The notes under the pieces are model-generated. The model was not told where the DNA came from. It saw only the letters and a list, made by a program, of their open reading frames with translations, and made no database searches. Positions 3,188 to 33,340 of a DNA stretch of 64,000 bases are shown here, piece after piece. The number at the start of each line of letters is the position of its first letter. The first letter of the stretch is position 1. The position numbers and the translations under genes are program-made. Source of the stretch: Escherichia phage JLBYU08; sequence record OK272482.1; one strand, written 5' to 3'.

Positions 3188-3470
3188 GAGACCTGTAAAA
3201 GAGAAATTCGATAAGACAGCTTTTGTATTCGATACACCTCTGGACGACATCATTAGAGGTATGCAATCATTGTATCGGAAGGCTGAATCTGAGCAGCTGT
3301 CGGAATCAGAACTTTACTGGCTCGGTTGGTGGGAGTTAAACCTGCCTAAAGCTGAAAGTTCTTCTCTGAGAACTGTTAAAACGTGCGCCCAAGAAAACGC
3401 TGCACTTGGAATCTACCACAAAAGGAAAAGATCAACAAAAAGCTCTCCAAGAAAGACTAAAAAGTCTTGA
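3177..3470 (+). CDS. hypothetical protein, basic C-terminus
   Basis: 97-aa ORF, lysine/arginine-rich tail. Confidence 0.4.
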   Translation: MMAKRPVKEKFDKTAFVFDTPLDDIIRGMQSLYRKAESEQLSESELYWLGWWELNLPKAESSSLRTVKTCAQENAALGIYHKRKRSTKSSPRKTKKS

Positions 3471-3496
3471 CAAAAGTGTTATTAATCTGATATTAT
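3467..3496 (+). promoter_or_regulatory. sigma70-like promoter (TTGACA-N18-TATTAT)
   Basis: Consensus -35 and -10 hexamers upstream of RBS AGGAG and ATG 3530. Confidence 0.55.
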
Positions 3497-3529
3497 CGGT
3501 CAGATATCTATAAACTAGGAGAACTAGAT

Positions 3530-3838
3530 ATGCTTAAAATTTTTATTGTTGAAGATAAAGATATTGTCCAGTTGTATGCAAACGAGAATCATAAAGGTAT
3601 GATTCTGAAGAAGGCAAGCAACCTTCATGAAAACACAATTCAACCTGGCGATGTAATTAAGATCTGTGGTTATATGATACCAGACTCCTTGATGAAAATA
3701 ACCCACCACTGGGGGTCTAATCCGTTCCTTTTTGAAAAGTATTGGGATGTTGAGTCACTTATTGCAGAGAGTGATGATGCATTCCATTACAGCATCCAAC
3801 CATCTTGCAGAATAACTAACAGGAGGGTCTTTGAGTAG
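3530..3838 (+). CDS. hypothetical protein
   Basis: ORF with RBS (ctaggagaactagatATG) downstream of promoter. Confidence 0.5.
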   Translation: MLKIFIVEDKDIVQLYANENHKGMILKKASNLHENTIQPGDVIKICGYMIPDSLMKITHHWGSNPFLFEKYWDVESLIAESDDAFHYSIQPSCRITNRRVFE

Positions 3839-4970
3839 AGAATATCCACTTATTGAGTCCATAGATTGTCTGGCTGATCTTCTTGAACCTGACGCTATAG
3901 TTTATTATGACTTCGATCAGGTTGCATATCAAGCTGCAGCAAGTTGTGAAAAAAGGACAATTGAGGTAACACACAAAGCCTCCGGACGTAAGAAGATGTT
4001 TAAAACACGAACAGAGTTCTGGGGGCGGCAGAAGAACACAGTTGGTGGTTGGTTAAAAGCTGAGAATACCAACCGTGAAGCTGCATGTAAAAAGGCTGGC
4101 AAGGAGTTTATTCCGTGGACACGAGAAGATTTCGATGTCTTGGATATCCAAACCCCTGATCCTGTAGAGAACTGCTTGCACACAATTAAGTGTAAAGCGA
4201 ATGCAGTCCTTAATTATCTCGGTATTCCGGAAGATCGGTGCGTGGGGGTACTTGGAGGCACAGGTAATTTCAGACTAGATCTTCCCATGCCGGAAAGATA
4301 TAAAGCCAACCGTAACAATACTCTTCGACCACTGCTGCTTGGAGATGCAAGACAGTATCTCCAAAAGCAGTATAATGCTCAAGTGATCAACGGTATCGAG
4401 GCTGACGACTGGTTAGCTATCCAGCAATTTGAAGGTTGGAACCACTACCAAAAAACAGGTAAGTTCAACAAGTTTATTATCTCTATTGATAAGGACCAAA
4501 GAACACTGCCGGGGCTTGTGTTCGATCCCATGCGAAACGATAAGGGAGATTTTGTAAGGGAAACCCCCATGCTGATCGATAACGGTATGGGGAACATCTT
4601 CATGAAGCCTAATGGAGAGGTTGGTGGTTACGGAATGCTGTTCTTCGGATACCAAATGCTGTGTGGTGACTCTGCCGACAATATCAAGCCGTATCAAGGA
4701 CTTATCGGTAAGGGTAAGTTCGGGGATGCCTCAGCATTCTACCTACTGTCTCAGTGCAGCACTCCAAAGGAGATGTGGGTGGCTATTATTGATCAGTACA
4801 AGAAGTGGTTCCCGAAAGGTGTTGTTAAGTATACTGACTTCAATGGTGTTGATCGTAGAATTTCCGTAGGTCAATGGATGAGTATAATTTTTGACTGTTT
4901 GTATATGAAGCGAACATTCAATGATCAAACAAAACTTGTTAACGTTCTTAGAAATGTTGGAGCAATTTGA
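3831..4970 (+). CDS. 5'-3' exonuclease / flap endonuclease (T7 gp6 / T5 D15-like)
   Basis: FEN-family acidic motifs GIEADDW, ISIDKD, CGDSADNIKP. Confidence 0.75.
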   Translation: MSREYPLIESIDCLADLLEPDAIVYYDFDQVAYQAAASCEKRTIEVTHKASGRKKMFKTRTEFWGRQKNTVGGWLKAENTNREAACKKAGKEFIPWTREDFDVLDIQTPDPVENCLHTIKCKANAVLNYLGIPEDRCVGVLGGTGNFRLDLPMPERYKANRNNTLRPLLLGDARQYLQKQYNAQVINGIEADDWLAIQQFEGWNHYQKTGKFNKFIISIDKDQRTLPGLVFDPMRNDKGDFVRETPMLIDNGMGNIFMKPNGEVGGYGMLFFGYQMLCGDSADNIKPYQGLIGKGKFGDASAFYLLSQCSTPKEMWVAIIDQYKKWFPKGVVKYTDFNGVDRRISVGQWMSIIFDCLYMKRTFNDQTKLVNVLRNVGAI

Positions 4971-5302
4971 TGACTAAAAATTCTGTAGATAGTGCAATTA
5001 TGGAAGCTGTTTTTGAGGATGATCATACAACAGGGACACTTAAAACAAAAAATACATTCGTTGTTGCCACAGGTATGTGGCGGTTGTATGAAGATGACAC
5101 CATTTCATACATCCTGTACACTGATGATTACGCAGATGACCGTGTATGGTCTGCTGTTTTAAAAGAGGATTGTGAACTGATTGAGGGCGAGCGGTTATGC
5201 ATGTTCACCAGTGTGGAAACAGATGTTAAGCTTTGCTCTCTCGTCTTGTTCAAAGATAAGGCTTATGCTCCTGATGAAGGAGAGGAGGATGAGGAAGTAT
5301 GA
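4967..5302 (+). CDS. hypothetical acidic protein
   Basis: 111-aa ORF, acidic C-terminus (EGEEDEEV). Confidence 0.45.
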   Translation: MMTKNSVDSAIMEAVFEDDHTTGTLKTKNTFVVATGMWRLYEDDTISYILYTDDYADDRVWSAVLKEDCELIEGERLCMFTSVETDVKLCSLVLFKDKAYAPDEGEEDEEV

Positions 5303-5928
5303 GAGAGCGTCTATTATCCATAGACCAGTCGTTGACACACACAGCTTGCGTTGTATGGGACGATGGAAAGCCTGTTCATAAGGTTGTGTTACGAACTCAA
5401 AGCTCATCTGCAAAAGAGAAGAAACCAGGGACGGTTTCTTTTGCAACAGCTGCTGAGCGTATTGACTGGATCTGCAAACAGGTCAGATATTATATCCACA
5501 CGCACGGAGTTGACACCGTGGTTATGGAAGGACTTTCCTTCGGATCTCGCGGGGATGCCACACGTGAACTGGCTGGGTTGTTTTACGGTCTCGAAGTTAT
5601 GCTTTGGGATGCTTTAGCTGATTGTGAAAATGACGGCCTGTTTAAGGTTCACACAGTGACACCAACAACTGCCAAAAAGTTTGCTCGTAGTCATCTTCCT
5701 GAAGAACTTGCTTTTGAGGAGAAGAAAAAGCTTGACAAAAAGACAGGTAAAGAGCATACTGTGAAGAAACCTGTTACGATGGATAAAAAGTTGATGGTTA
5801 AGGCCTGCGAAGTATCTGAACCAGGGTTCCTAGATGGGATCAATTTGGTACAAGGTAAGGCCGATCTCGCAGATGCTTATTGGATAGGCAGGGCGCATCT
5901 GGAGGGGTTATCGCAAAGCGTAAAATAA
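5299..5928 (+). CDS. RuvC-like Holliday junction resolvase (putative)
   Basis: N-terminal LSIDQSLTHTA (catalytic Asp), VVMEGLSFG (Glu), ADAYWIG (Asp) in RuvC-like order. Confidence 0.5.
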   Translation: MRERLLSIDQSLTHTACVVWDDGKPVHKVVLRTQSSSAKEKKPGTVSFATAAERIDWICKQVRYYIHTHGVDTVVMEGLSFGSRGDATRELAGLFYGLEVMLWDALADCENDGLFKVHTVTPTTAKKFARSHLPEELAFEEKKKLDKKTGKEHTVKKPVTMDKKLMVKACEVSEPGFLDGINLVQGKADLADAYWIGRAHLEGLSQSVK

Positions 5929-6485
5929 GAAAGAAAGCTGTCAAAGCCCCCGTTCATAGCGGGTGGCTAAAAGATTCTAAGGACATAGCCAACTTTCGAA
6001 AAGAATTGTCAGAGGAGCAGGATGGTCTTGATCCGATCTTGTGCGAGCCACTTCGTAAGCCTTGTTTAGATCATGATCATCTGACTGGTCGTTGCAGGGG
6101 TGTTTTGTCTCAGTGCACTAATACCTTTGAGGGGTATGTGCTTAAATACTGGATGAAATACTGTAACGAGTATACAGATTGCAGTTTATCAGAGGCGTTG
6201 CGCCGGATGGCTGACTATCTGGAGAAAGACTACAGCGACTTCCCGCTCCACAAAAACTACAGAGATGATATGACAAAGTTCTTGAGGAGATGCTCTAAAG
6301 CTACGATTATTGCACGAGCAGAATCAGATCTCAATCTTGTCATTAATCCAGAGTGCACCAAGCATGAGGCTATTGAGTCCTACATGCAGGAGTTTATAAA
6401 GAAAACTGAGGAGAGAGATTTCTATGGGGATGAAAAAGGTATTCAATCCTTGCGACTCAGTCCTGATCAGGATGAAATACCGTAA
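5880..6485 (+). CDS. recombination endonuclease VII family protein
   Basis: CLDHDHLTGRCRGVL..CTN..EG zinc/His motif typical of T4 endo VII; true start uncertain (overlaps upstream gene). Confidence 0.7.
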   Translation: MDRQGASGGVIAKRKIRKKAVKAPVHSGWLKDSKDIANFRKELSEEQDGLDPILCEPLRKPCLDHDHLTGRCRGVLSQCTNTFEGYVLKYWMKYCNEYTDCSLSEALRRMADYLEKDYSDFPLHKNYRDDMTKFLRRCSKATIIARAESDLNLVINPECTKHEAIESYMQEFIKKTEERDFYGDEKGIQSLRLSPDQDEIP

Positions 6486-6645
6486 CTGGAAAGGTGTTGT
6501 TGCAGATCGCTGCGTTACTGAGCCTAATTTATGGTTTGGCTCTACAGAGTATCATAAAGAAGAGCAGTGGTTGATGCATGCCTTTGATGTAGACAAGGGC
6601 GAATATCGTGACTTCGCTTTAAAAGACATTCTTCAGTTTTACTAA
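6424..6645 (+). CDS. hypothetical protein
   Basis: 73-aa ORF, overlaps endo VII 3' end in another frame; may be spurious. Confidence 0.3.
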   Translation: MGMKKVFNPCDSVLIRMKYRNWKGVVADRCVTEPNLWFGSTEYHKEEQWLMHAFDVDKGEYRDFALKDILQFY

Positions 6646-6651
6646 GGAATT

Positions 6652-7641
6652 TTGACGATGATGACAAAGTTAACTCTTGAGCAAATTTTAACACTAAAGC
6701 AGCAGGGATACACTAATAGACAAATTGCTCGTGAATTTTTAGGCCGTGAGTCACGTGAGAGTTGGATCCGACTACAGCTTAAACGTGCACAAGAGAATAT
6801 GTCAGAGATTGTAGGAGAAGCAACGGAGCGCTTCCTTGAAGAACACAAAGGAGCTAAAGTTTGGGTGTATGATACAGAAACATCACCAACAAACGGCTGG
6901 TTCTTTGGGCACTATAAGACCAACATTCAAACCTGCGGTATTGAAATTATGCCCTATATGCTAACTTTCGCAGGTAAGTGGTTAGACAGTCCTAGTGTGG
7001 TTGACTGCGCTCTTCCCGATTACAAAATGTGGGATGAGGATATTCACAATGACCTCGAATTGATTCAGGACTTGTGGTATTATCTGGATAAATGTGATGT
7101 CGCAGTAGCCCACAATTCAGGTTTTGACTGTGGGTGGGCAAACCAACGATTTGCATTTCACGGGTTGCCTCCAACAAGCCCATACAAAGAGGTTGACACC
7201 CTTAAAATGATCAAGAAGGCATTCCGTTTGAATGCAAACACTTTGGAGTATGCATGCAAATACTTCCAACTTGCCAGACAGAAACTGATTGACCACACAT
7301 TTGAAATGTGGATCAAGTGTGTTCATGGTGATCTTGAGGCGTTTAAACAGATGCGGGAGTACAATGTTGGTGATATCCTATCTCTGGAAGGCCTGTATTT
7401 GCTGGCACGCCCGTTTGCTAAGCAGCACCCCAACATGTCATTGTACTACCAGGATGAGGAGCCAAAAGTTCGTTGCCCACGCTGCGGTGGAGAACACCTT
7501 CACGAGGAAGAAGCTTTGGCGTATACTCAACTGAGTGCATTTAAAACATATCGCTGCGAAGGTTGTGGATCTGTTGTTCGTGACCGTAACAACATCCGTA
7601 CCAGAGAAGAAATGAAAAACACCCTGATTAAGATAATCTAA
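6652..7641 (+). CDS. DnaQ-like 3'-5' exonuclease with C-terminal zinc ribbon
   Basis: VYDTETS (Exo I), VAHNSGFDCGW (Exo II), C-terminal CPRCGG...CEGCGS. Confidence 0.6.
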   Translation: MTMMTKLTLEQILTLKQQGYTNRQIAREFLGRESRESWIRLQLKRAQENMSEIVGEATERFLEEHKGAKVWVYDTETSPTNGWFFGHYKTNIQTCGIEIMPYMLTFAGKWLDSPSVVDCALPDYKMWDEDIHNDLELIQDLWYYLDKCDVAVAHNSGFDCGWANQRFAFHGLPPTSPYKEVDTLKMIKKAFRLNANTLEYACKYFQLARQKLIDHTFEMWIKCVHGDLEAFKQMREYNVGDILSLEGLYLLARPFAKQHPNMSLYYQDEEPKVRCPRCGGEHLHEEEALAYTQLSAFKTYRCEGCGSVVRDRNNIRTREEMKNTLIKII

Positions 7642-7650
7642 TCAAGTATA

Positions 7651-7678
7651 GGGAGGCTTGCGCCTCCCTTTTCCTTTT
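7651..7678 (+). terminator. rho-independent terminator
   Basis: Hairpin GGGAGGC-TTGC-GCCTCCC followed by TTTTCCTTTT. Confidence 0.7.
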
Positions 7679-7687
7679 GGAGGCACT

Positions 7688-9146: not shown

Positions 9147-9760
9147 TGGATATTATTGTTCTTAACGCCCCACCCAGCAGTGGTAAGGATCACATTGCAG
9201 ATCTCTTGTTGGAAGCTATTCCTAACTCACACCACCGTGAGGTTAAGGAGATGCTCTTCAGTGTGGCAATTAAGGCAGCTGGTGTAACTCCTCAACTCTG
9301 GAATGCACTTTATGACCGCCACTACAAAGAAGAGCCTTGCCCTTTCTTAATGATAGACGGCAAGCATGTTTCTCCGCGAGAATGGATGATCCATTGTAGT
9401 GAAAATCTGATTAAACCTATCTTTGGTGAAGATGCTTTCGGTAAAGCCGCAGTCGCATCTTTGAAGAAAGATTTCCCTAAAGGTAAAGGGGTTGTTGTTT
9501 ACTCCGATGGTGGATTCAAAGAGGAGCTGGCATGCCTTAGCGAGTACGCGTACAGCACAGGTGGAGATCTGTTGTTGTTCCGTATTCACCGTGTCGGATA
9601 TGACTGGGGAAATGATTCCAGAACCTATCTAAGTCTGGAAAAGAACGGAATAAAAGGAATTGAGTTCGATGTTGTAAACCCTGAAGGTGCACCTTGGGAA
9701 TGTGCATCGGAGATTGTGTGCAAGTATATTGATGCTAAAGAGGCCCAAGAAGAATGTTAA
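9143..9760 (+). CDS. P-loop kinase, dNMP kinase-like
   Basis: N-terminal NAPPSSGKDHIADLL resembles T4 gp1 LSGVKRSGKDTTADF. Confidence 0.5.
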   Translation: MMDIIVLNAPPSSGKDHIADLLLEAIPNSHHREVKEMLFSVAIKAAGVTPQLWNALYDRHYKEEPCPFLMIDGKHVSPREWMIHCSENLIKPIFGEDAFGKAAVASLKKDFPKGKGVVVYSDGGFKEELACLSEYAYSTGGDLLLFRIHRVGYDWGNDSRTYLSLEKNGIKGIEFDVVNPEGAPWECASEIVCKYIDAKEAQEEC

Positions 9761-11532: not shown

Positions 11533-11561
11533 TCCTATCACAGCGATAGGTAACTTTTGTG

Positions 11562-11590
11562 TTGACTAATAGTATTAGATAATCTATAAT
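11562..11590 (+). promoter_or_regulatory. sigma70-like promoter (TTGACT-N17-TATAAT)
   Basis: Consensus hexamers in thyX-downstream intergenic. Confidence 0.55.
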
Positions 11591-12102: not shown

Positions 12103-12333
12103 ATGAGTCATAACTCCAAGTGGAAGGATCTTGGTTTTGCAAGTCGGTCAGAGTATGTTGGTTGGCTTTGGTTCAACGGCCTGACAAACGATATTAAAAT
12201 GTATGATGATGTTTATTATGACGAGTATACAGGCAAAATTATAAATATCTCTGTAGAAGAGGATACCTTTATCCAGCAAGATACTGATACCTGCCTTGAT
12301 AAATACGTTGATGAAGTGGAGGAAGCAAATTGA
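12103..12333 (+). CDS. hypothetical acidic protein
   Basis: ATG 12103 preceded by GGTGGTGAAG. Confidence 0.4.
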   Translation: MSHNSKWKDLGFASRSEYVGWLWFNGLTNDIKMYDDVYYDEYTGKIINISVEEDTFIQQDTDTCLDKYVDEVEEAN

Positions 12334-14645
12334 TCACCAAGGTAATTAAAAGCAACGGATGTGAAGTGGCATTCGATCCAGAACGTTTAAATAAGGCAGC
12401 TATTTTCGGTGACGACGGTAACGGCAATTGGTCACATATTGCACTGGATGCATACAAACGACTGTATGATGGATGTACAACCAAAGAAGTTAACCAAGCT
12501 ATCATAGACTCCTGTGTTAGCCGTAAAGACGAAGCACATTCCCGTATGGCTGGTCGTGTTCTTATTGGTCAGATTTATAAAGAGGCTTTTGGAGGGTTTA
12601 CAAAGATCCCTTCCTTACCATCATTTTACAACGACATGGTTGAGAAAGGGTATTGGGAGGATATGGGATATAGCTTTACCGAGCTAAACACTTTAGACGC
12701 TGTTATTGACCACAGTAAAGATCTCGGTTATGGCTATGCAGTCCTTAAACAGTTTCGCGACAAATACGGGATCAAGGATACTCTTAAAGACACCTTGTTT
12801 GAATCTCCCCAGATGATGTTTATGGGGATAGCAATGGCTGTCATGAAGAATATGCCGAAAGAACGTCGTATCAACGATGTTGTAAAATTATACACTTATC
12901 TGTCCGACTTAAAGATCAATGCCCCGACACCGTACTTAAACGGGCTGCGCACAGGTAAGACAGGGTATGCATCTTGTTGTGTAATAAAAGCTGACGATAC
13001 AGCAAAATCTATTGGTGTGGCACGTGAAGTTGCGTACACAATGACGGTTAACCAAGCAGGTATCGGCTACTATTTATCATCAAGATCTGCAGGTGATGGT
13101 GTTCGCGGTAACACTATTAAACACATGGGTAAGATTCCATATTATCGAGGTATTGATGCTGGTGTTAAGGAGAACAGACAACAATCACGTGGCGGTTCTG
13201 CAACAGTATCATTCCTTGCACTGGACCCGCAGATTGATGAGCTAATCCGTTTGAGAAACCCTATGACTGTTGCTTCAAAAAGAATCAACACCATGGACTA
13301 CTCCATCGGTATTAATAGGTCGTTTATCAACCGTGTGGCTAAGAATTTAGATTGGATGCTTGTTTCTTATAAGCACGCTCCTCAACTGCATGAGGGTATC
13401 TTCACCATGTCTATGGAGGAGTTCGATGCAGAGGTTGAGCGTATTGCTAAAGATGACAGTATTCCTAAGACATGGATCCGGGCTAGAGATCTTGCTGTTG
13501 AGCTGATCACGCAGCGTACTGAGGTGGGAAGGCTGTACGTATACTGGACAGATGAGATGAATAGACATACACCTTTTAAAGATGTGATCTATTCAAGCAA
13601 CCTGTGTGCAGAAATAGCCCTCCCGACAAAAGGCTATTCAGATATGCGTAATATCTTCAAGTACGATGTTGATGATGGTGAGGTTGCATTGTGCTTCCTG
13701 TCATCTCTTGTAGCTGGAAGGGTTACCCCAGAGGAGTATGAGGATGTTGCATACTACACGGTGCTTATGATTGACAATGTTATGGAAATCATGACATATC
13801 CGTATGAAAACATGGAGAGTACTGTTAAAAAACGCAGATCCATCGGGGTTGGCCTTACCAATGTTGCACATTTTATTGCCAGCCACAAGGTTACTTACGG
13901 ATCTCCTGAAAGTAAACAGCTTGTTCACGATCTTGCAGAACTTCACAGCTACAGCTTGCATAAGGCAAGTTTACGGTTGGCAAAAGAGCGTGGTGTCTGC
14001 GAGTGGATGTATAAAACAAAATATCCAGAAGGTTGGTTACCAATCGACACTTATAACAAAGAGGTCGATAGTGTGGTGAAAGATCCTTCTCTTAAACAGG
14101 ATTGGGAAGGGTTACGTAAAGAAATCATTGAAAATGGTGGGCTACGTAATAGCGTTCTTGAAGCATATATGCCTAATGAAAGCTCTTCGCTGGCAACAAA
14201 CACCACTAACGGGGTTTATCCTGTCCGTGAGCACATTATCTTTAAAAAGTCGCCACAAGGGCAGGTGCTGTTTATCGTTCCTGAATACGATGAGTTGAAA
14301 GAGTATTACACTTCGGCTTGGGACGTTGATACTAACGACATGATCGATATGTATGCTGTGATTCAAAAATTCACAGGTCAGGCAATCAGCGCGGATTTAT
14401 ACATAGACTACACCAAGTTGAAAGATGGTAAAATTTCAATGAAGGAGCAGCTAGGGTACCTTATCCGTGCCACTAAATTCGGGATGAAGACATGGTATTA
14501 TTTAAACTCTAGGGTTGGTGCTGGTGACTCCTTGGCAGAGGAACTTCATGCCAAGAAACAGGCTGAAGATGAAACCAGAAAGAACTATCCTTTGATTGCA
14601 GATAGTTCAGTTGAAGATCCGTATTGCGAAAGCTGTGCACTATAA
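12330..14645 (+). CDS. nrdA: ribonucleotide reductase class Ia large subunit
   Basis: ATP-cone at N-terminus, NLCAEI active-site block, C-terminal tail with Cys pair (CESCAL). Confidence 0.9.
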   Translation: MITKVIKSNGCEVAFDPERLNKAAIFGDDGNGNWSHIALDAYKRLYDGCTTKEVNQAIIDSCVSRKDEAHSRMAGRVLIGQIYKEAFGGFTKIPSLPSFYNDMVEKGYWEDMGYSFTELNTLDAVIDHSKDLGYGYAVLKQFRDKYGIKDTLKDTLFESPQMMFMGIAMAVMKNMPKERRINDVVKLYTYLSDLKINAPTPYLNGLRTGKTGYASCCVIKADDTAKSIGVAREVAYTMTVNQAGIGYYLSSRSAGDGVRGNTIKHMGKIPYYRGIDAGVKENRQQSRGGSATVSFLALDPQIDELIRLRNPMTVASKRINTMDYSIGINRSFINRVAKNLDWMLVSYKHAPQLHEGIFTMSMEEFDAEVERIAKDDSIPKTWIRARDLAVELITQRTEVGRLYVYWTDEMNRHTPFKDVIYSSNLCAEIALPTKGYSDMRNIFKYDVDDGEVALCFLSSLVAGRVTPEEYEDVAYYTVLMIDNVMEIMTYPYENMESTVKKRRSIGVGLTNVAHFIASHKVTYGSPESKQLVHDLAELHSYSLHKASLRLAKERGVCEWMYKTKYPEGWLPIDTYNKEVDSVVKDPSLKQDWEGLRKEIIENGGLRNSVLEAYMPNESSSLATNTTNGVYPVREHIIFKKSPQGQVLFIVPEYDELKEYYTSAWDVDTNDMIDMYAVIQKFTGQAISADLYIDYTKLKDGKISMKEQLGYLIRATKFGMKTWYYLNSRVGAGDSLAEELHAKKQAEDETRKNYPLIADSSVEDPYCESCAL

Positions 14646-14652
14646 TTTTAAA

Positions 14653-14672
14653 GGGGCTTCGGCCCCATTTTA
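14653..14672 (+). terminator. weak terminator/attenuator between nrdA and nrdB
   Basis: Hairpin GGGGC-TTCG-GCCCC then ATTTTA. Confidence 0.4.
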
Positions 14673-14683
14673 GAGGTAGAATA

Positions 14684-15772
14684 ATGGCTGTATTTAATGC
14701 TGAGAACACCGCTCATAAAACTGGTGACTATCCGCTGTTTCTGGGACAGCAAATGGGTATGTACGACTCTATCAACAAAAAATATCCACAACTGTTTGAA
14801 CTATACAAAAAACAAAAAGAGCAAGATTGGGCAGAGGATGAAGTGGATTTGTCGCAATCTATTTCAGATTTTGTAACATGCTCAAAGTCAACTTATGACG
14901 TGATGGTGCAGACCTTGATGTGGCAATGGGAGGCTGATAGCGTTGCGGCAAGATCGATCATCTGCCTCTTTTCACCATTCATCACTAATAGTGAGCTTTT
15001 CACTCTATTGATGAAACAGTCAGAGATTGAAGTTCTTCACGCACTAACTTACTCAGAGATTGTTAGACAATGCCTCCCCAATGCCCGTGAGATTATAGAA
15101 GAGATTCAGGAAAACCAAAACGTTCTGAGCAGATCCGGCGTTATTGTCAAATACATGCAAGAGCTTGAGGTTATTGGTGCAAAATACCGACTGGATCCTT
15201 CTAGTGTTGAAGAAGATATTGTGCGGAAATGCATTCTTAGAGCGCTTTTTGCACTTTTAGCCCTGGAAAGTATTGAGTTTATTGCAAGTTTTGCATGCAC
15301 TTTCGCAGTAGCTGAACAGGGTATTTTTGTTCAGGTGGCGCAGCTTGTTCAAAAAATCATGCTTGACGAAATGCTACATTCGAAAGGTGATTTTGCCATC
15401 ATTGATATCTTGCTTAACGATCCCGCATGGGAGAAAAGCTTCCTGGAGATAAAAGGGGAGTTAAAAGAGATTCTTGATGAAGTACGAACCAAAGAGTACG
15501 GTTGGAGTGACTATATTTTCAGCGAAGGAAGAGCGATTATAGGTCTTAACTCACCGTTGCTTAAAGAATGGGTTGACTATAACTGTTCACCGATTTATGA
15601 TTACTACGACATCGACAAAGACTTTGTGCCGCCAACAAAGGACCCGCTACCGTTTATGCAGGTGTGGATGAAACCTTCATTGCAACAGACGGCGAACCAA
15701 GAAATGTCGAACACTGACTACCGCGTCAACACAACTGTTAACGACGCTGAAGAAGAAATTTGGGAGTTTTAA
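14684..15772 (+). CDS. nrdB: ribonucleotide reductase class Ia small subunit
   Basis: Ferritin-like di-iron protein follows nrdA; RBS GAGG before ATG 14684; C-terminal acidic tail (EEEIWEF). Confidence 0.85.
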   Translation: MAVFNAENTAHKTGDYPLFLGQQMGMYDSINKKYPQLFELYKKQKEQDWAEDEVDLSQSISDFVTCSKSTYDVMVQTLMWQWEADSVAARSIICLFSPFITNSELFTLLMKQSEIEVLHALTYSEIVRQCLPNAREIIEEIQENQNVLSRSGVIVKYMQELEVIGAKYRLDPSSVEEDIVRKCILRALFALLALESIEFIASFACTFAVAEQGIFVQVAQLVQKIMLDEMLHSKGDFAIIDILLNDPAWEKSFLEIKGELKEILDEVRTKEYGWSDYIFSEGRAIIGLNSPLLKEWVDYNCSPIYDYYDIDKDFVPPTKDPLPFMQVWMKPSLQQTANQEMSNTDYRVNTTVNDAEEEIWEF

Positions 15773-15775
15773 TAT

Positions 15776-16054
15776 ATGAGCTGCGAAAAATCTTTTTTCA
15801 TCATCATTTACGGTAAGGATAACTGCCCACATTGTGTCAGAGCAAAAGAATTTGCAATCAGCAAAGGTCTGCCTTTTGTATATAAGACACTTGGCGAGGG
15901 ATACACAAAAGAAGAGCTTATTGAGAAGTGTAGTCCAATCGTCCCCAGAACGTTGCCGCAGATCTTCTTAGAAAGCGATCTTGACAGTATCCATATAGGC
16001 GGTGCCGACGATTTCATCTCTTTTGTTAAGAATGGTTTTGGAGAGAAAAAGTGA
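15776..16054 (+). CDS. glutaredoxin/thioredoxin-like redoxin
   Basis: CPHC active site in MSCEKSFFIIIYGKDNCPHCVRAKE; sits between nrdB and nrdD. Confidence 0.75.
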   Translation: MSCEKSFFIIIYGKDNCPHCVRAKEFAISKGLPFVYKTLGEGYTKEELIEKCSPIVPRTLPQIFLESDLDSIHIGGADDFISFVKNGFGEKK

Positions 16055-18174
16055 AAGTTGTAAAACGGGACGGTAGAGAAGAGTTCTATAACGGAATTAA
16101 GGTGATCAAGGCGGCAGAGTCCGCCTTACTTGAGTCTGGACATACTGAAGAAGAAGCTTACCGGATCGCTTGTGCGGTTAATGAAGTTGTTGCTAACAAT
16201 CTACCAACCGACCAGTGCACGATCTCTGTAAAAAATATCCATATCCTTGTTGAAGATGCTCTTATGGATATGGGTTTAAAATGTGCAGCCAGAGAATACA
16301 TCCAGTATAGACAGACAAGAGATAATAACAGAGAGGCAGGTGGAAAACTGCTTGCAGATATTAGTGGCTTCTTGGATCGAACTTGTGATGAATTTACAAA
16401 AGAAAACGCAAATAAGCCTACCAATCATGTACACACTCATCGTGACCTGCTTGCAGGCATCCTTAGCAAACACCTTGCATCAACACAGATCCTGCCAGAC
16501 CGTGTCTCAGAAGAGCACAATAAAGGCTTCATCCATGTGCATGATCTTGACTACTTGATCAGTCCGTTAACAAACTGTTGTTTGGTAAATTATCCAGATA
16601 TGTTGGAAAACGGATTCAACATTGGTAACGCCCATGTCAGTAAGCCGAAGTCAATAGGGGTTGCAACAACAATCCTTAGCCAAATCTCTAGTGCGGTAGC
16701 TAGTGCTCAATATGGGGGTCAGACTATGAGCCATATTGATCATTATCTGGCACAGTATGCTGAGGCGACTTATGAGAAGAACCTTAAATTTTGCCAGGAA
16801 CATTGGTTGCCAGATGCTGAGACTGTTGCAATGCAGATGACAGATAAAGACGTATTTGACAGCATGCAGACTTTACTCTATCAAATCAATACGTTAACTT
16901 CTGTCAACGGGCAAACCCCATTCATCACATTAAGTTTAGGTCTGGACACCTCAGTCTTTGGTAGAATGATTACCAAAAACTACTTGAAAGTCCACAAAAT
17001 GGGTCTTGGTGAAGAACGTATCACACCTGTGTTCCCTAAAGTGTTGTTCTTCCTAGAAGAGGGTGTCAACATGAACCCTGGAGATCCTAACTATGATTTG
17101 AAACGATTAGCTCTGGAATGCTCTGCAGAGCGGATTTATCCTGACTTTGTTTCTGTTCCACTAAATCGTAAAGTGACAGGCTCGACAGATGGTAAAGTAA
17201 CGAGCATGGGTTGCCGGAGTTTTCTTAGCAAATACAATGACTTGGAAACAGGCGAGGAGAAATACCTTGGCAGATTTAACTTAGGCGTTGTTAGCCTTAA
17301 TCTGCCAATGATTGCGGCAAAAGCTAAAACGGAAGGTGTTGATTTCTTTGCAGTTCTTGACGAATACCTAGATCTTGCATACGAGGCTCACCTTGTAAGG
17401 GTTGATCGTCTAAAAGGGACAAAGGCAGGGCAGAACCCTATCATGTGGTGTGAAGGCGCTCTTGCTCGCCTGGACCCTGAAGAGAGTATTGATAAACTCT
17501 TCTACGACGGGTACGCTTCCATCAGTATTGGGTATATTGGTGTGTATGAAACCTGTCAGATTTTGGGCAGGGAGGGTGACAAGGCTTTAGCTCTTGGAAT
17601 ACTTCAGCACATGAGAGATGCTTGTGAGAGATACAAGAAGGAAAGTAGACTAGCGTTTAGCTTGTACGGCACCCCTTCTGAGAGTCTATGCTATAAAGCT
17701 GCAACCTGTCTGGATCGTGAATATCCTGAAGTGTTGAAGCACGAGCATGAATATCTCACCAACAGTTTCCATCAGCCAGTATGGATCAATAGCTCTCCTT
17801 TTGATAAGTGGGAGTATGAGGAAGGTTTTGCTATGATCTCCTCTGGTGGCAACATCGGATACGTAGAGACACCAAATCTGAAAAAAAACTTAGATGCTTT
17901 GGAAGCTCTTGTTGATTTCGGATATAAACACATTATGTATTTTGGTATCAACCAGCCTGTGGATAAATGTCTCAAGTGTGGTTTCTCTGGTGAGTTCAGT
18001 GCAACAGCTAAAGGCTTTGTATGCCCAGAGTGTGGAAACCATGAAGAGGGAACGATCAGCGTAATTCGACGTGTGTCTGGATACCTTTCCAGTCCTAACT
18101 CTCGTCCTTACAATAAAGGTAAGCAAGCGGAAGTTATCGAGCGAGTTAAGCACTACGGAAGTTGTGGTTGCTGA
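16051..18174 (+). CDS. nrdD: anaerobic ribonucleotide reductase class III
   Basis: N-terminal ATP-cone, C-terminal glycyl-radical motif RRVSGYL and zinc ribbon CLKCG...CPECG. Confidence 0.9.
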   Translation: MKVVKRDGREEFYNGIKVIKAAESALLESGHTEEEAYRIACAVNEVVANNLPTDQCTISVKNIHILVEDALMDMGLKCAAREYIQYRQTRDNNREAGGKLLADISGFLDRTCDEFTKENANKPTNHVHTHRDLLAGILSKHLASTQILPDRVSEEHNKGFIHVHDLDYLISPLTNCCLVNYPDMLENGFNIGNAHVSKPKSIGVATTILSQISSAVASAQYGGQTMSHIDHYLAQYAEATYEKNLKFCQEHWLPDAETVAMQMTDKDVFDSMQTLLYQINTLTSVNGQTPFITLSLGLDTSVFGRMITKNYLKVHKMGLGEERITPVFPKVLFFLEEGVNMNPGDPNYDLKRLALECSAERIYPDFVSVPLNRKVTGSTDGKVTSMGCRSFLSKYNDLETGEEKYLGRFNLGVVSLNLPMIAAKAKTEGVDFFAVLDEYLDLAYEAHLVRVDRLKGTKAGQNPIMWCEGALARLDPEESIDKLFYDGYASISIGYIGVYETCQILGREGDKALALGILQHMRDACERYKKESRLAFSLYGTPSESLCYKAATCLDREYPEVLKHEHEYLTNSFHQPVWINSSPFDKWEYEEGFAMISSGGNIGYVETPNLKKNLDALEALVDFGYKHIMYFGINQPVDKCLKCGFSGEFSATAKGFVCPECGNHEEGTISVIRRVSGYLSSPNSRPYNKGKQAEVIERVKHYGSCGC

Positions 18175-18237
18175 TTCTTGACAAAAGCCACAAGGATGTG
18201 GCATATTATTGACACACAGTGAGCTAGGAGGTGCAGT

Positions 18238-18354: not shown

Positions 18355-18824
18355 ACATTGCTGGATACACAGAAATATCTTACACCGAAGGACCAGGTAT
18401 TAGAACTGCCTTGTGGGTATCTGGGTGCCCACACGCTTGCCATGGTTGCTTTAATCAGGCATTTTGGTCAAAAGATAAGGGGAGGAAGTTCACTGAAGAA
18501 GACTTGCAAAAAATCTTGTCAGATTTAGATAACCCGTTTGTGTGCGGTATCTCTCTACTGGGTGGAGAACCCTTAGCATACTATAATGAGCCAGATATTA
18601 TTAGCCTGATGGAGAAAATTAAGGAAAAATTTGGTGACAAGAAAACTATTCTTGTATATACTGGGTTCACATTTGACCATATCTCTAGTGATGTTCTTAA
18701 ACTGGCTGATATCATCATTGACGGTAAGTATGTAAAAGATTTACCAACCAAGAAACCGTTCCGAGGCAGTGATAACCAAAGAATGTTTAAAAAAGTATCA
18801 GGCGGTTGGGTTCAGGTAGACTAG
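18351..18824 (+). CDS. nrdG: anaerobic RNR activating enzyme (radical SAM)
   Basis: CPHACHGCFN cluster motif; directly after nrdD. Confidence 0.85.
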   Translation: MNIAGYTEISYTEGPGIRTALWVSGCPHACHGCFNQAFWSKDKGRKFTEEDLQKILSDLDNPFVCGISLLGGEPLAYYNEPDIISLMEKIKEKFGDKKTILVYTGFTFDHISSDVLKLADIIIDGKYVKDLPTKKPFRGSDNQRMFKKVSGGWVQVD

Positions 18825-18827: not shown

Positions 18828-18857
18828 TTGACAAAGCTTTGTTGAGTTGGTTATAAT
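18828..18857 (+). promoter_or_regulatory. sigma70-like promoter (TTGACA-N17/18-TATAAT)
   Basis: AGTTGTTGACA -35 context shared with promoter at 20219. Confidence 0.55.
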
Positions 18858-20174: not shown

Positions 20175-20218
20175 TACAGAAGGGTGGTTATTCCACCCTT
20201 AAATATCTAAAACAGTTG

Positions 20219-20247
20219 TTGACAAATAGGTAAGCTTTAGATATTAT
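20219..20247 (+). promoter_or_regulatory. sigma70-like promoter (TTGACA-N17-TATTAT)
   Basis: Consensus hexamers after PhoH stop and hairpin 20181-20199. Confidence 0.55.
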
Positions 20248-22282: not shown

Positions 22283-22563
22283 AAATGAGTGCTAAGGACA
22301 AATTACACCAGTTAGCGCTAAAACGCCCTGTAACGCTCCCTGACGAGCTTAACTCCATTTATGATGCGATTGTAGGGGAGATACAAAATAAAGCGTTAGC
22401 AGGCTTTCTGGGGTGCGGATTTTCGATAAATCTACCCTCGCATCTCTCAGATTACTTCCCGCACATTGTTGGAGATTTAAGGGCAGGAGGTCTGCAGGTA
22501 GATGTTGTTGGCATCTCCCCAGAGAAAAATAATACGGTTGCCTACTTGACAGTAACCTGGTAG
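22279..22563 (+). CDS. hypothetical protein
   Basis: ATG 22279 overlaps MTase stop (ATGA). Confidence 0.45.
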   Translation: MKMSAKDKLHQLALKRPVTLPDELNSIYDAIVGEIQNKALAGFLGCGFSINLPSHLSDYFPHIVGDLRAGGLQVDVVGISPEKNNTVAYLTVTW

Positions 22564-22599
22564 TTGTGTATTGTTGTTTTCAACAAGAGGGGGTCATTT

Positions 22600-22839
22600 A
22601 TGTACAAGTCATTTTCAATCTACTCAAGACAGGCGAAACACTACACAGAGATCCTGATCACTCAGAAAAAATCTGTGGAAGGTGAGTGGGAATATCACCA
22701 TAAAATGTTGCGTCCAGACTGGGTTTTTGATAGACTTATTGCTATGATCCCTCTCGGAGAAGTATACCCTCTGACAGCCCATCGCGATGCTTGGGATTTA
22801 ATTGATTACATAGATTCATTTAAGGAGCCTAGATTATGA
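22600..22839 (+). CDS. hypothetical protein
   Basis: ATG 22600 after GAGGGGG. Confidence 0.45.
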   Translation: MYKSFSIYSRQAKHYTEILITQKKSVEGEWEYHHKMLRPDWVFDRLIAMIPLGEVYPLTAHRDAWDLIDYIDSFKEPRL

Positions 22840-26641: not shown

Positions 26642-26643
26642 TA

Positions 26644-27405: not shown

Positions 27406-27804
27406 GTGAAAAATAAACTGTTCAAAGTTACAATGAAAATTCGCGGAGCTTGGAGCGTAAAGCAAGGGCGTATCCCAGAATTTGAGAAAGACTTCTACGT
27501 AGTCTCCACCTCGGAGGAGGCTGCATGCTGGCAGGCTGGCTATGCCTATGCAAGAACCTGGTACGAAGGATACCAGACTGGGGGCTATGACGGAGAAATT
27601 GTCAGCAAGGGTGTAGAAGAAATTAATGTGTTGACAAGTGAAAAAGTTTTTGTTATAGTGCATCCAGATTCCAGAGTGAAGCATTACTGGAATGCCAGAA
27701 CAAAAACTTGGACACCGTTTGCAGATTCTGCTACTCCACTTTTAAACCAGAAAGCTCTTGACTCTACCCCAAGTTATGGGGTTGTTGAAGAAAAGCTAAA
27801 CTGA
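27406..27804 (+). CDS. hypothetical protein, paralog of 29615..30010
   Basis: Shares HPDSRVKHYWNARTKTWTP versus HPHSNIAYYWDVLNNEWTP; GTG start assumed. Confidence 0.45.
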   Translation: MKNKLFKVTMKIRGAWSVKQGRIPEFEKDFYVVSTSEEAACWQAGYAYARTWYEGYQTGGYDGEIVSKGVEEINVLTSEKVFVIVHPDSRVKHYWNARTKTWTPFADSATPLLNQKALDSTPSYGVVEEKLN

Positions 27805-27821: not shown

Positions 27822-28112
27822 ATGATGGATTTAATTCTAAATATTGATAACGCAGGAGAGTTTAAAGACGATGGTGTAACAAGCATGGACAAACCCTGCT
27901 CTGCTAAGGTTGACTCAAAATGGACCTATAAGTTTGATGGAGAGATCTTCGCAAATGATGAGAAGGTTGTAGATGCTGCAGCCATTTTGAACGCTCTAGG
28001 TTACGACCCTGTGAATTCTTTGATCAAGGATCCTGTTGAGTTTGCGGAGTATGTTCGAAAAATGGCAGATCTTGCTGTAGATATTTTAAAAACTATCGAC
28101 AACAAGCTATAA
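27822..28112 (+). CDS. hypothetical acidic protein
   Basis: 96-aa ORF. Confidence 0.45.
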   Translation: MMDLILNIDNAGEFKDDGVTSMDKPCSAKVDSKWTYKFDGEIFANDEKVVDAAAILNALGYDPVNSLIKDPVEFAEYVRKMADLAVDILKTIDNKL

Positions 28113-28117
28113 AACTG

Positions 28118-28146
28118 TTGACACAATGCTTCAGCTATAGTATTAT
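28118..28146 (+). promoter_or_regulatory. sigma70-like promoter (TTGACA-N17-TATTAT)
   Basis: Consensus hexamers immediately upstream of the HPF homolog. Confidence 0.55.
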
Positions 28147-28923: not shown

Positions 28924-29014
28924 TCCTGCTTGGATTAGCATACTTCCTCGCTAAGGAAGATTTGTAATTATTTGTGGGAAAGGAGTCCCAATCTCTTACC
29001 AGAGGTGATACTAT

Positions 29015-29278: not shown

Positions 29279-29282
29279 TAAT

Positions 29283-30010: not shown

Positions 30011-30089
30011 TTTTCTTGCACACAGGTGTTGACAACGCCAACCCTGTGTGAAATAATACCTTCATCTTAATAAGACAGGGGACCGATTG

Positions 30090-31314: not shown

Positions 31315-31403
31315 TAAATCTTGCCAAGGTTGCAACGGCACTGTTAATTATTTGCTGGTCAGTAACCTTAACACTGTGTCTTGTATTTCAGTAAGGTGCT
31401 TAT

Positions 31404-31667
31404 ATGAACATCCTGATGTGGGTTGTAGCAGTGGCGTTTGTTGCATGTTTTTGCTGCTGGGTTGCGGTGAGGATTTCTGTAGCTACCCTTCGGAAGTTGG
31501 GGTTCTCAGAGTGGGATATTAATATCCTTTCTTTTCGCAATGAAACAATCTCAGCCGCCCTGCTCTGTAAGAAATTCAAGTGGGAACCTTGCGAGGTCAT
31601 GAACTATCTAAGAACGGGAGATATCCCTGAAAGATTTAAAAAAGTTCTTGACGACAAGGATAAATGA
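31404..31667 (+). CDS. small membrane protein
   Basis: N-terminal TM MNILMWVVAVAFVACFCCWVAV. Confidence 0.45.
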   Translation: MNILMWVVAVAFVACFCCWVAVRISVATLRKLGFSEWDINILSFRNETISAALLCKKFKWEPCEVMNYLRTGDIPERFKKVLDDKDK

Positions 31668-31822
31668 TAGTATAGTGACTAACAAGAGGTGAGGAATGAC
31701 TGATTTTACTGAAGCTTTAATGATGGCCTTGTCTGTTTTAGCGCTATCGGTGTGTTTTGGGGCGTTATTCACATCTCTGGTTAAAGTTTTACATACAGTA
31801 TTATTACCCAAGGAGCGCAGTA

Positions 31823-32074
31823 ATGATGAAGATTGACTTAAATGCCGGAGACCATGTTGTTGTCAAATGCATCGGAGATTATCTTGGATTCACAATCGGC
31901 AATACTTACGAGGCGGTAGTGGCGAAGGTTTACCATGATAAAGTCCTCAGTCTTGTATTTGACTGCGATGATGATGGGGATGACCGATACGTCTGTGAGG
32001 TGCTGGCACGAGACGATAGTGAAGACCAGAAATTCCTGGTTATTGAACTGAACGGTATTTTTGTAGAACGTTAA
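31823..32074 (+). CDS. hypothetical acidic protein
   Basis: RBS AAGGAG before ATG 31823. Confidence 0.45.
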   Translation: MMKIDLNAGDHVVVKCIGDYLGFTIGNTYEAVVAKVYHDKVLSLVFDCDDDGDDRYVCEVLARDDSEDQKFLVIELNGIFVER

Positions 32075-32102
32075 TTTAAAACAACATAAGGAGACTCTTA
32101 CT

Positions 32103-32408
32103 ATGGCTAAATCTAAAGTTGAACTGTTCACCTCTCTTCCTTCTGACACTGCAGAACGTGATCGCCTTCGCAAAACAATCGAAGAACTGGTGGAACTCCA
32201 ACTTCAGATTAAAGATCTGAAAGATGCCATCAAGGATATCATTCTTGTTGAGAAGCAGGATCATCTGTATTCTCCTAAATTCATCAAATCTCTGGTGGCT
32301 ACCGAGTTCGATATTCGATATGAGGCTGAAAAACGTCGAGCTAAAATCGAAGAAGAGGTTGAGCACATGTCCGAGGCAGACATTCTGTTCAAACGCTCTG
32401 TAGAATAA
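32103..32408 (+). CDS. hypothetical coiled-coil protein
   Basis: RBS AAGGAGA; helical, charged. Confidence 0.45.
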   Translation: MAKSKVELFTSLPSDTAERDRLRKTIEELVELQLQIKDLKDAIKDIILVEKQDHLYSPKFIKSLVATEFDIRYEAEKRRAKIEEEVEHMSEADILFKRSVE

Positions 32409-32463
32409 TGACAAAGAGAGGGGCTTGGGCCCCTCTTTTTACTATCTATGAAGGAGATTTGAG

Positions 32464-32790
32464 ATGGGTATACCGATCACTGTAAAAGAATTGAATGAAC
32501 GTGATGCAGGCGGTCTATGGCCTGCACGAAAAATACGCTGTGTCTACATGAAAGAGAATCTTGAACATCTTGATCAACAGATCAAGGTCGGTGATATTTT
32601 CGAGGTCTTCTATTCCAATCGTCGCAACTGGGAAACCATTCAACCTTCTGGTTTTGTTCTTGCCAAACTTGACACTGGAGAAGTGATTATCCCAGGGTTG
32701 GATATTGTCTTCGAAATTATCCAGGAGTGGGATCCGGATAAGATTAGATACGAAGAGTTATTCGGTAAAGGTATTATCAAACCTGCGTGA
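32464..32790 (+). CDS. hypothetical protein
   Basis: RBS GAAGGAG before ATG. Confidence 0.45.
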   Translation: MGIPITVKELNERDAGGLWPARKIRCVYMKENLEHLDQQIKVGDIFEVFYSNRRNWETIQPSGFVLAKLDTGEVIIPGLDIVFEIIQEWDPDKIRYEELFGKGIIKPA

Positions 32791-32798
32791 GGTGGATT

Positions 32799-33098
32799 AT
32801 GTCTACAAAGGCGGCTAAATACTCCTACATGCCATCAACCTCTGCAGAGGTAGACTTTAGTTTCGATGTGTTTCCACTGTTTGAGGTGGTTCTGGCATAC
32901 CCAACAATACTATCTACTCCCGAATCACTTGTGCCTGTTAAGTTGCAGAACGCTATGCATTCTATGCACTACAACAATAAATGTAGGCACAGATGGTGTC
33001 AGGACGGGGAAAAAGATCTGGATAGTTTGAGAGATTTTGACAGTCACCTTTTGACACCTTTCAGCTACTCCAACCTTGATAAGCCCTCGTGGGTATAG
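32799..33098 (+). CDS. hypothetical protein
   Basis: ATG 32799 in frame with track ORF. Confidence 0.4.
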   Translation: MSTKAAKYSYMPSTSAEVDFSFDVFPLFEVVLAYPTILSTPESLVPVKLQNAMHSMHYNNKCRHRWCQDGEKDLDSLRDFDSHLLTPFSYSNLDKPSWV

Positions 33099-33123
33099 CA
33101 AAATATCAAATTTAAGACACCTA

Positions 33124-33150
33124 GGACGCTCTGTGGCGTCCTTTTCTTTA
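33124..33150 (+). terminator. rho-independent terminator
   Basis: Hairpin GGACGC-TCTGTG-GCGTCC followed by TTTTCTTTA. Confidence 0.65.
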
Positions 33151-33311
33151 TCTAGTGCACGATTGCATACCTTGGACAGGTAATCTCATTACAGAGCGTT
33201 TAAGAGCTTTCTGCAAACAACTCCATATTTCGAGCGTAGCGAGAACGCACGTCCGTTTTGACCCAAATCACCATACGCTCGGATTTTAACCAAACCCTCG
33301 CGGCGTTTCTG

Positions 33312-33340
33312 TTGACACATTACCGCCCTCGTGATATTAT
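33312..33340 (+). promoter_or_regulatory. sigma70-like promoter (TTGACA-N17-TATTAT)
   Basis: Consensus hexamers. Confidence 0.55.

Follow-up and report, generated by a model that had tools for sequence, protein, structure and literature searches.

Background

The genome paper of phage rV5 (Kropinski et al. 2013, PMC3606486) reported 33 sigma70-like promoters along with 20 terminators, and this catalogue is the closest described counterpart of the promoter family analysed here in a 64,000-nucleotide stretch of Escherichia phage JLBYU08 (sequence record OK272482.1), which is hereafter termed the window. Table S4 of the rV5 paper (PMC3606486) lists P093, P107, P118, P121, P144, P150 and P162 as well as most of the orthologues of the minus-strand sites (P164-P231), and in RefSeq record NC_011041 (rV5) the orthologues are annotated as regulatory features of the type 'Sigma70-type promoter'. 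The record of phage Gotham likewise has promoters annotated in the same arm. Both the finding and its interpretation are already known from the literature, in the form of predictions. Compared with rV5 the loci are orthologous and the hexamers identical or near-identical; the isolate is, however, a different one, some -10 hexamers are one base off (TATTAT here, TATCAT or TAGTAT in rV5), and the sites cited below as 43994 and 54548, together with a set of 49-nt promoter cassettes, are absent from the rV5 list.

In the sister genus Certrevirus, Buttimer et al. (2020, PMC7344957) described an early/middle consensus, AAAA(N3-4)TGTTGAC(N17-19)TATAAT, that comprises -10, -35 and UP elements; these promoters cluster in an early region of small open reading frames (ORFs) and near replication genes, and their dependence on the host polymerase was inferred (PMC7344957). 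The window, which derives from the same subfamily (Vequintavirinae), shares with that system the succession, at part of its sites, of A-tract, TG before the -35 hexamer and -10 hexamer, the concentration in the small-ORF region and near genes of replication and nucleotide metabolism, and the inference of host-polymerase use. It differs in genus and host, and in that TG precedes TTGAC at only about one third of all sites.

The early promoters of phages T4 and T5 are reportedly near-consensus sigma70 promoters with A-rich upstream regions. The sites described here resemble them in their near-perfect hexamers, A-rich sequence around -43, frequent extended -10 elements and short units of small early genes; unlike T4 and T5, they belong to an unrelated lineage, and neither ADP-ribosylation (Alt/Mod) nor MotA/AsiA nor any other known switch protein was identified in this analysis. 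Nothing about the family is conceptually new, as early expression from near-consensus promoters of the host type is standard among large lytic coliphages. What is added here is quantitative support (statistics, orientation and conservation), the symmetry of both gene arms, a structural module with near-chance numbers of sites, and cassettes that bound gene-sized insertions or deletions (indels).

When a 6-kb sample of the window was compared with known genomes, more than 100 Vequintavirus (rV5-like) genomes matched at 90-99.8% identity, and the entire window was aligned to Escherichia phage EdH4 (MK327930), from 100703 through the record end to 27814, at 96-99% identity. By this similarity the window is half of an rV5-like E. 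coli phage genome of the genus Vequintavirus. Genes lie on the plus strand across 1-34 kb (nucleotide metabolism, repair and small genes) and on the minus strand across 37-64 kb (many small ORFs and replication genes), the GC skew being positive to about 33 kb and negative beyond. Between the converging arms lies an ORF-poor stretch of about 2.3 kb (~34.2-36.5 kb), the counterpart of the region boxed as 'non-coding' in the rV5 paper. An exact direct terminal repeat of 459 bp is present in EdH4, and both ends of its record (~480 bp each) map onto window positions 34999-35497, which places the physical genome ends within the ORF-poor stretch (especially 35019-35477); transcription of both arms runs toward the genome termini. 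Several short repeats, both direct and inverted, are present at 35.0-35.9 kb.

Occurrence and enrichment of the predicted promoter family

We place at roughly 0.87 the probability that the sites serve the sigma70-bearing RNA polymerase of the host, E. coli, as promoters. A sequence-only reading had previously named seven plus-strand sites of the form TTGACA-N17-TATTAT or TATAAT, and all seven are present where it located them. Their hexamers are near-consensus, as claimed, the -35 hexamer matching at 6/6 positions at six of the seven; the form given needs amendment, however, in that 11562 carries TTGACT (5/6) and the spacer is 18 bp at 3467 and 18828 (17 bp at the other five, within a range of 16-18 bp that was fixed by the design of our scan). 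The site at 30029, which had been singled out as weaker, reads TTGACA-N17-AATAAT. All seven align to rV5 promoters with conserved hexamers, 3467, 11562, 18828, 20219, 28118, 30029 and 33312 corresponding to P93, P107, P118, P121, P144, P150 and P162, respectively. A shared context, AGTTGTTGACA, had also been attributed to several of these sites; it is exact at 18823 and 20214, but has one mismatch at 30024 and two at 28113. A third exact copy of AGTTGTTGACA, at 36293 in the ORF-free region, was rejected as a promoter as no -10 hexamer follows 16-18 nt on.

With the strict pattern TTGACA-N16-18-TATWAT, 10 sites were observed in the window against 0.09 expected from dinucleotide shuffles. When sites with at least 11 of the 12 hexamer bases in agreement with the consensus were counted (the >=11/12 set), 22 were found, compared to 1.6 +/- 1.2 in 60 first-order Markov simulations, of which the maximum was 4. 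The plus strand carries twelve of these, none beyond 34.2 kb, and the minus strand ten, none before 37 kb; five of the strict matches are on the minus strand, at 37-62 kb. The plus-strand family of the sequence-only reading is therefore real but half the picture, an equal set being present on the minus strand at 37-62 kb; even on the plus strand its list lacked 1652, 23832, 25660, 27631 and 34135, as well as the sites 2446, 18178, 22546 and 31648, which match at 10/12 positions. TTGACA is perfect in 21 of the 22 sites of the >=11/12 set, and in the -10 hexamer A2 and T6 are kept at all sites listed below, where the variants include TATAAT, TATTAT, TATACT, TATAGT and AATAAT. Minus-strand sites are also cited by their higher coordinate (for example 37061, 45523 and 62108).

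The plus-strand sites are as follows:

2446..2474 (+), promoter-like TTGACA-N17-TATTGT (10/12), orthologue of rV5 P90, preceding a small membrane-protein gene at 2506
3467..3496 (+), promoter TTGACA-N18-TATTAT, rV5 P93, with the A-tract CTAAAAAGTC upstream
11562..11590 (+), promoter TTGACT-N17-TATAAT, rV5 P106/P107, preceding ORF107 and nrdA/nrdB
18178..18207 (+), weaker site TTGACA-N18-CATATT (10/12), with a hairpin inside the spacer, behind nrdD
18828..18857 (+), perfect 12/12 promoter TTGACA-N18-TATAAT, rV5 P118, preceding small ORFs and a PhoH-like gene
20219..20247 (+), promoter TTGACA-N17-TATTAT, rV5 P121, preceding ORF121 and a ClpP-like protease gene
22546..22574 (+), candidate promoter TTGACA-N17-TATTGT (10/12), 26 nt 5' of the gene at 22600
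27631..27659 (+), intragenic promoter-like TTGACA-N17-TATAGT, 163 nt 5' of the gene at 27822
28118..28146 (+), promoter TTGACA-N17-TATTAT, rV5 P144, preceding a RaiA/HPF-like gene, with a hairpin in the 5' untranslated region
30029..30057 (+), promoter TTGACA-N17-AATAAT, rV5 P150, with the 8-bp inverted repeat CACACAGG/CCTGTGTG around the -35 hexamer
31648..31676 (+), promoter-like TTGACG-N17-TATAGT (10/12), matching the rV5 P156 sequence of Table S4, a match of sequence rather than of aligned orthologues
33312..33340 (+), promoter TTGACA-N17-TATTAT, rV5 P162, heading the last plus-arm unit ahead of the ORF-free region

The minus-strand sites are as follows:

37033..37061 (-), promoter TTGACA-N17-TATATT, rV5 P164, in a promoter-plus-ORF module that is missing from slur16 and EdH4
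37781..37809 (-), promoter TTGACA-N17-TAACAT, rV5 P168, with an A-tract upstream and a 5' hairpin
39820..39847 (-), promoter TTGACA-N16-TAGTAT, rV5 P174, with an A-tract upstream and a 5' hairpin
41333..41381 (-), copy of the 49-nt promoter cassette, TTGACT variant
43652..43679 (-), promoter TTGACA-N16-TATACT, rV5 P185, with AAAAAATAGTG upstream and the 5' hairpin GGCGGGAAAACTTCCCGCC
43967..43994 (-), promoter TTGACA-N16-TATACT, not in the rV5 list
45055..45103 (-), 49-nt promoter cassette, TTGACA-N18-TAAACT, with the palindrome GATGGCCTTG/CAGGGCCATC over the -35 hexamer
45496..45523 (-), perfect 12/12 promoter TTGACA-N16-TATAAT, rV5 P192
45676..45724 (-), second 49-nt cassette copy, 98% identical
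46168..46195 (-), promoter TTGACA-N16-TAAACT, rV5 P194
46633..46661 (-), promoter TTGACA-N17-TACACT, rV5 P195
46913..46940 (-), promoter TTGACA-N16-TATTAT, with AAAATAGTCG upstream
49416..49443 (-), perfect 12/12 promoter TTGACA-N16-TATAAT, rV5 P205, with an indel breakpoint relative to phage Gotham 6 nt upstream
49869..49897 (-), promoter-like TTGACG-N17-TATAGT (10/12), with ACAAAAAGTG upstream
51105..51133 (-), promoter-like TTGACA-N17-AATTAT (10/12)
54520..54548 (-), perfect 12/12 promoter TTGACA-N17-TATAAT, not in the rV5 list
54859..54887 (-), promoter TTGACA-N17-TAAGAT, rV5 P220, with GAAAATAGTCA upstream
55721..55749 (-), promoter TTGACA-N17-TATTAT, rV5 P224
62080..62108 (-), promoter TTGACA-N17-TACAAT, rV5 P231, with a strong terminator-type hairpin (rV5 t232) within about 15 nt

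Orientation, position and conservation

Every one of the 22 sites of the >=11/12 set is co-oriented with the local genes (p = 2e-7), and 13 of them fall in non-coding DNA, which makes up 15% of the window (p = 3e-6). Intergenic sites are located 29-58 nt upstream of a start codon, with a ribosome-binding site and ATG visible downstream. Positions on which the scan had not selected were analysed at the 27 sites with a nearby downstream gene. The A+T content reaches about 80% at -45 to -39, where A is the commonest base at -45, -43, -42, -40 and -39, and about half of the sites have a clear A-tract, which is strongest in the minus arm; by the definition of the proximal subsite of the UP element given in PMC4390567, which sets an A/T-rich and chiefly A tract at about -46 to -38, this A/T tract is UP-like in sequence. 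G was observed at -36 in 13/27 and at -14 in 15/27 sites, the latter representing a partial extended -10, and beyond the -10 hexamer C occupies the sixth position in 14/27 and A the seventh in 17/27, which is the usual start-site step. Of the seven sites that the sequence-only reading named, six have a TG in front of the -35 hexamer, compared to 9/27 overall, and the 'AGTTG' context which that reading had noted is, by its position, the proximal end of the upstream A/T-rich signal.

Conservation was assessed in four relatives, namely rV5, slur16, EdH4 and L004, the last of which is an IMG/VR contig that is more diverged than the other three. Differences affect 2.1% of aligned positions in the hexamers, compared to 7.6% in the spacers and 4.6% in the flanks (hexamer versus spacer, Fisher p = 1.7e-4), and the -35 hexamer is invariant across all four. 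Three diverged metagenomic relatives (L005-L007) have 65-77% nucleotide identity in genes and unalignable intergenic DNA; on their coding strand they harbour 10-12 strong sites per 20.8 kb, with 0-1 on the opposite strand. They keep promoters at the gene junctions orthologous to 11562, 18828 and 20219: the counterpart of 18828, at 9364, has the same 18-nt spacing with a partly diverged spacer, that of 20219 has the same spacing with an unrelated spacer, and that of 11562 has retained its position and hexamers only. The hexamers of the intragenic site 27631 are also retained in diverged relatives despite an altered spacer. In a scan of the whole EdH4 genome, 25 co-oriented sites were found in about 88 kb of non-structural DNA, whereas the structural module of 47.5 kb holds only two co-oriented and two opposite sites, numbers near those expected by chance. 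The 'late' motif of rV5, TGGTAAAATA, has no exact copy in the window, where one-mismatch copies are modestly enriched (17 versus 7).

These data bear on the alternative that the matches simply arise from base composition or codon usage, with no role in transcription. TTGACA alone is sense-strand biased and weak 9/12 matches are barely above shuffles, as such an explanation would have it; the enrichment is, however, 14-fold to 100-fold over dinucleotide-preserving or Markov controls, and neither the intergenic enrichment and fixed distance to the start codon nor the conservation of hexamers over variable spacers would be expected, so that we regard this explanation as extremely improbable.

Several points nevertheless weigh against reading the sites as promoters. 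A number of the >=11/12 sites are intragenic (1652, 23832, 25660 and 54985), and the conservation of 25660 is explicable by the encoded protein alone. Since TTGACA alone is four times commoner on the sense strand (66 versus 17), part of the strand bias may stem from coding or from uncounted weak promoters. Related genomes are not independent samples, and the p-values for conservation are indicative only. The rV5 authors saw sigma70-like sites in the late region as well (PMC3606486). In the literature searched, there were no experimental transcription-start or polymerase-binding data for any Vequintavirus and no RNA-seq data for rV5-like phages, the RNA-seq reported there dealing with other phages or a defence system.

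With these points taken into account, the observation of the sequence-only reading is confirmed, if incomplete and slightly imprecise, and its interpretation, namely host sigma70 promoters driving short early or middle units, is supported by every sequence-level test, as strand, position, unselected signals, conservation and distribution all agree with it. From features that were observed directly (sequence, statistics, orientation, position, conservation and orthology) we infer polymerase binding, start sites and timing as set out below.

Proposed mechanism and transcription units

At the sites interpreted as sigma70 promoters, region 4 of sigma would recognise the nearly invariant TTGACA and region 2 the TAtaaT hexamer 16-18 bp further down. 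The G at -14, present at about half of the sites, would act as a partial extended -10, TG or G at -15/-14 being expected to aid binding, while at many sites the A/T tract at -45 to -39 should contact the alpha subunit's C-terminal domain. Transcription would be expected to start at the A of the C-A step, 7 nt past the -10 hexamer, giving a leader of 25-55 nt that is followed by a Shine-Dalgarno sequence and ATG. In this manner the promoters would partition both non-structural arms, giving many short units that hold from one gene to several, and several of these units would end at intrinsic terminators, and such a layout would allow the unmodified host polymerase to express early or middle genes once the DNA enters the cell. 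An RNA polymerase gene is found neither in the annotation table of EdH4 (whole genome) nor in those of the fetched rV5 and slur16 regions.

The predicted intrinsic terminators, for which EdH4 and rV5 annotations are among the basis, are as follows:

7650..7669 (+), intrinsic terminator, rV5 t099, at the end of the P93 unit
~20181-20198, intrinsic terminator
33123-33142, intrinsic terminator
36526-36543, intrinsic terminator
37897-37919, intrinsic terminator
51572-51593, intrinsic terminator

The unit headed by 3467 would extend over 3530-7641 (exonuclease, endonuclease and polymerase-exonuclease subunit) and end at the 7650 terminator. The 11562 promoter stands directly behind a hairpin at 11534-11550, and that at 20219 comes after the terminator-like hairpin at ~20181-20198. 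Genes downstream of the promoters encode an exonuclease, an endonuclease, ribonucleotide reductases, PhoH-like and ClpP-like (protease) proteins and a RaiA/HPF-like ribosome factor, and they further include many small ORFs and the block of methylase, helicase and DNA polymerase. When the first genes downstream of the promoters were scanned against Pfam, the sole match was the RaiA/HPF-like domain, Ribosomal_S30AE. As judged by predicted function, the downstream genes fit an early or middle programme, two classes that sequence cannot separate.

The promoters provide reliable annotation landmarks, which would define about 30 short transcription units in this half-genome, and as a set they mark the non-structural (early/middle) part of any rV5-like phage, a group that is in wide use in therapy and biocontrol collections.

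Directly 3' of the 33312 promoter, an out-of-frame ORF of 29 codons with a good ribosome-binding site (33373-33462, plus strand) encodes a strongly hydrophobic product (MRTLSEVLVVILMIITSIAAVAGILTGGT) and overlaps the start of the conserved ORF162 homologue (33366-33668).

Inverted repeats, hairpins and possible regulation

Strong inverted repeats surround the -35 hexamer at 30029, at 37061 and in both the 45055 and the 45676 copy of the 49-nt cassette (z = -3 to -6 versus shuffles). At 62108, the promoter and its hairpin stand ahead of the methylase, helicase and polymerase genes, the hairpin being followed by a T-run and predicted at -20 kcal/mol (62036-62108, minus strand; rV5 P231/t232). 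A similar arrangement is seen at 34135-34197 (+), where a near-consensus promoter is followed, within about 15-25 nt as at 62108, by a terminator-type hairpin with a T-run. The hairpins behind 62108 and 34135 could form an attenuator-like gate (of the replication genes in the case of 62108) or be the source of a very short RNA.

It may be proposed from these features that a subset of the promoters forms a regulated class instead of acting as constitutive early promoters, being repressed or activated by a phage protein that binds the -35 palindromes or gated at start-proximal terminators. Such regulation would account for the strong inverted repeats that enclose the -35 hexamer in four promoter regions (five with the cassette variant at 41333) and for the terminator-type hairpins within about 15-25 nt behind 62108 and 34135, and candidate regulators may be named in a gene annotated 'transcriptional regulator' at 32103-32408 and in an Srd-like anti-sigma candidate that rV5 encodes outside the window. 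The palindromes are, however, confined to 4/29 promoter regions, and the mean z-score is -0.8; the product annotated as a 'transcriptional regulator' matched nothing in Pfam, and the hairpins may be no more than 3'-end structures belonging to the gene upstream. A regulated class with a putative operator is, in our view, unlikely.

As general features of the family, three structures were considered and rejected. A GC-rich 5' hairpin behind the start site is present at only about 8/27 promoters and is not enriched over controls, the mean folding energy of the 5' regions (n=27) being -5.1 kcal/mol versus -5.5 for random 40-nt windows, and the share at or below -8 being 22% versus 18%. A palindrome over the -35 hexamer reaches z < -2 in the 4/29 regions mentioned above and is not a general trait, and the shared hairpin motif CGGGAAAACTTCCCG occurs in 2-3 places only, which is not significant.

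Promoter cassettes and gene-sized indels

The 49-nt promoter cassette is present in four copies, at 41333-41381, 44721-44769 (degenerate), 45055-45103 and 45676-45724. The copies at 45055 and 45676 are 98% identical across 49 nt with an identical 43-nt core, and the near-perfect 10-bp palindrome of the cassette (GATGGCCTTG/CAGGGCCATC) extends over the -35 hexamer. Of the four copies, the three that are intact are also kept by EdH4 and slur16. In phage magaca, a single cassette takes the place of the 45055/45676 pair with a clean junction, the missing DNA being the ~570-620 bp between the cassettes with two ORFs and the promoter 45523. The promoter 37061 and the ORF at 36562-36981 form a module that sits between two copies of a hairpin AGGGGC...GCCCCTT (36525-36543 and ~37090-37110, minus strand), and slur16 and EdH4, from which the module is absent, both retain a single hairpin with a T-run. 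Other indels of the minus arm are flanked by repeats of 17-32 nt in translation-start or intergenic regions. This comparison covers seven relatives and a handful of cases rather than a survey, its evidence consists of flanking repeats only, and nearly all breakpoints would be expected to be intergenic under selection anyway.

Promoter-early stem-loop (PeSL) cassettes have been described in T4-type phages (Arbiol et al. 2010, PMC2839356; Comeau et al. 2014, PMC4122927). Like PeSLs, some of the elements described here combine strong sigma70-like promoters and stem-loops among small non-essential ORFs, and repeated cassettes bound gene-sized indels of close relatives; unlike them, they comprise one repeated cassette family (four copies) and few hairpin repeats, most promoters here being unique sequences. 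One may accordingly ask whether the repeated hexamer-bearing elements are kept mainly as PeSL-like recombination cassettes that move small genes, with promoter activity being secondary. The single cassette of magaca opposite the two copies which in the window flank two ORFs and a promoter, the hairpin-flanked 37061 module with a single hairpin at the empty sites of slur16 and EdH4, the 17-32-nt repeats at other indels and the small minus-arm ORFs common to unrelated phages are all consistent with this explanation. On the other hand, most of the promoters share only the hexamers and the A-tract, which is too little homology for recombination, there is a single cassette family with four copies, and the plus-arm sites named by the sequence-only reading show no such indels. 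The two roles are furthermore not exclusive, PeSLs themselves being functional promoters (PMC2839356). We therefore consider it quite improbable that recombination is the principal role, and retain host-polymerase promoters as the preferred reading.

A broader proposal would be that promoter/terminator cassettes of the small-ORF arm are in addition recombination points at which promoter-plus-ORF modules are inserted, deleted and swapped, in a PeSL-like manner outside the T4-type phages, and that the -35 palindromes of a subset are a putative repressor operator timing early shut-off; this combination is speculative and we deem it doubtful. No paper that extends PeSL-type shuffling to rV5-like phages was present in the literature searched.

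For several small rV5 ORFs, the annotation records similarity to phage RB49 hypothetical proteins. The small ORFs at ~39258-39781 form a block that recurs, at 80-87% nucleotide identity, in unrelated large phages of the phAPEC8-like, phi92-like and jumbo groups, a similarity which suggests recent horizontal transfer of small early genes among unrelated phage groups.

Other observations in the window

Gene-sized differences from relatives are also seen in the ribonucleotide reductase region. Relative to window positions 12250-16284, the block of aerobic ribonucleotide reductase genes (most of nrdA, nrdB and the gene for glutaredoxin) is missing from L004, which is about 86-89% identical and has only about 360 bp in that place. 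In slur16, an HNH endonuclease gene that is absent from the window splits nrdD.

The gene-poor gap of the minus arm at 47566-47761 contains three imperfect 57-nt repeats with a spacing of 65-74 nt, and a long weak hairpin (47586-47623) lies in this repeat region.

An Rfam scan of the window returned as its sole match a complete group I intron (RF00028, 72.5 bits, E = 2e-16) and nothing related to promoters. The intron is located at 56419-56707 on the minus strand, within the DNA polymerase gene (~55.7-59.1 kb), and the copy here is ORF-less. The intron-bearing insert of 332 bp is absent from slur16 and EdH4 and present in many other Vequintavirus genomes; the polymerase of rV5 is annotated as split, and the intron copies of FFH2 and FV3 carry about 500 extra bp in which an HNH homing endonuclease is annotated.

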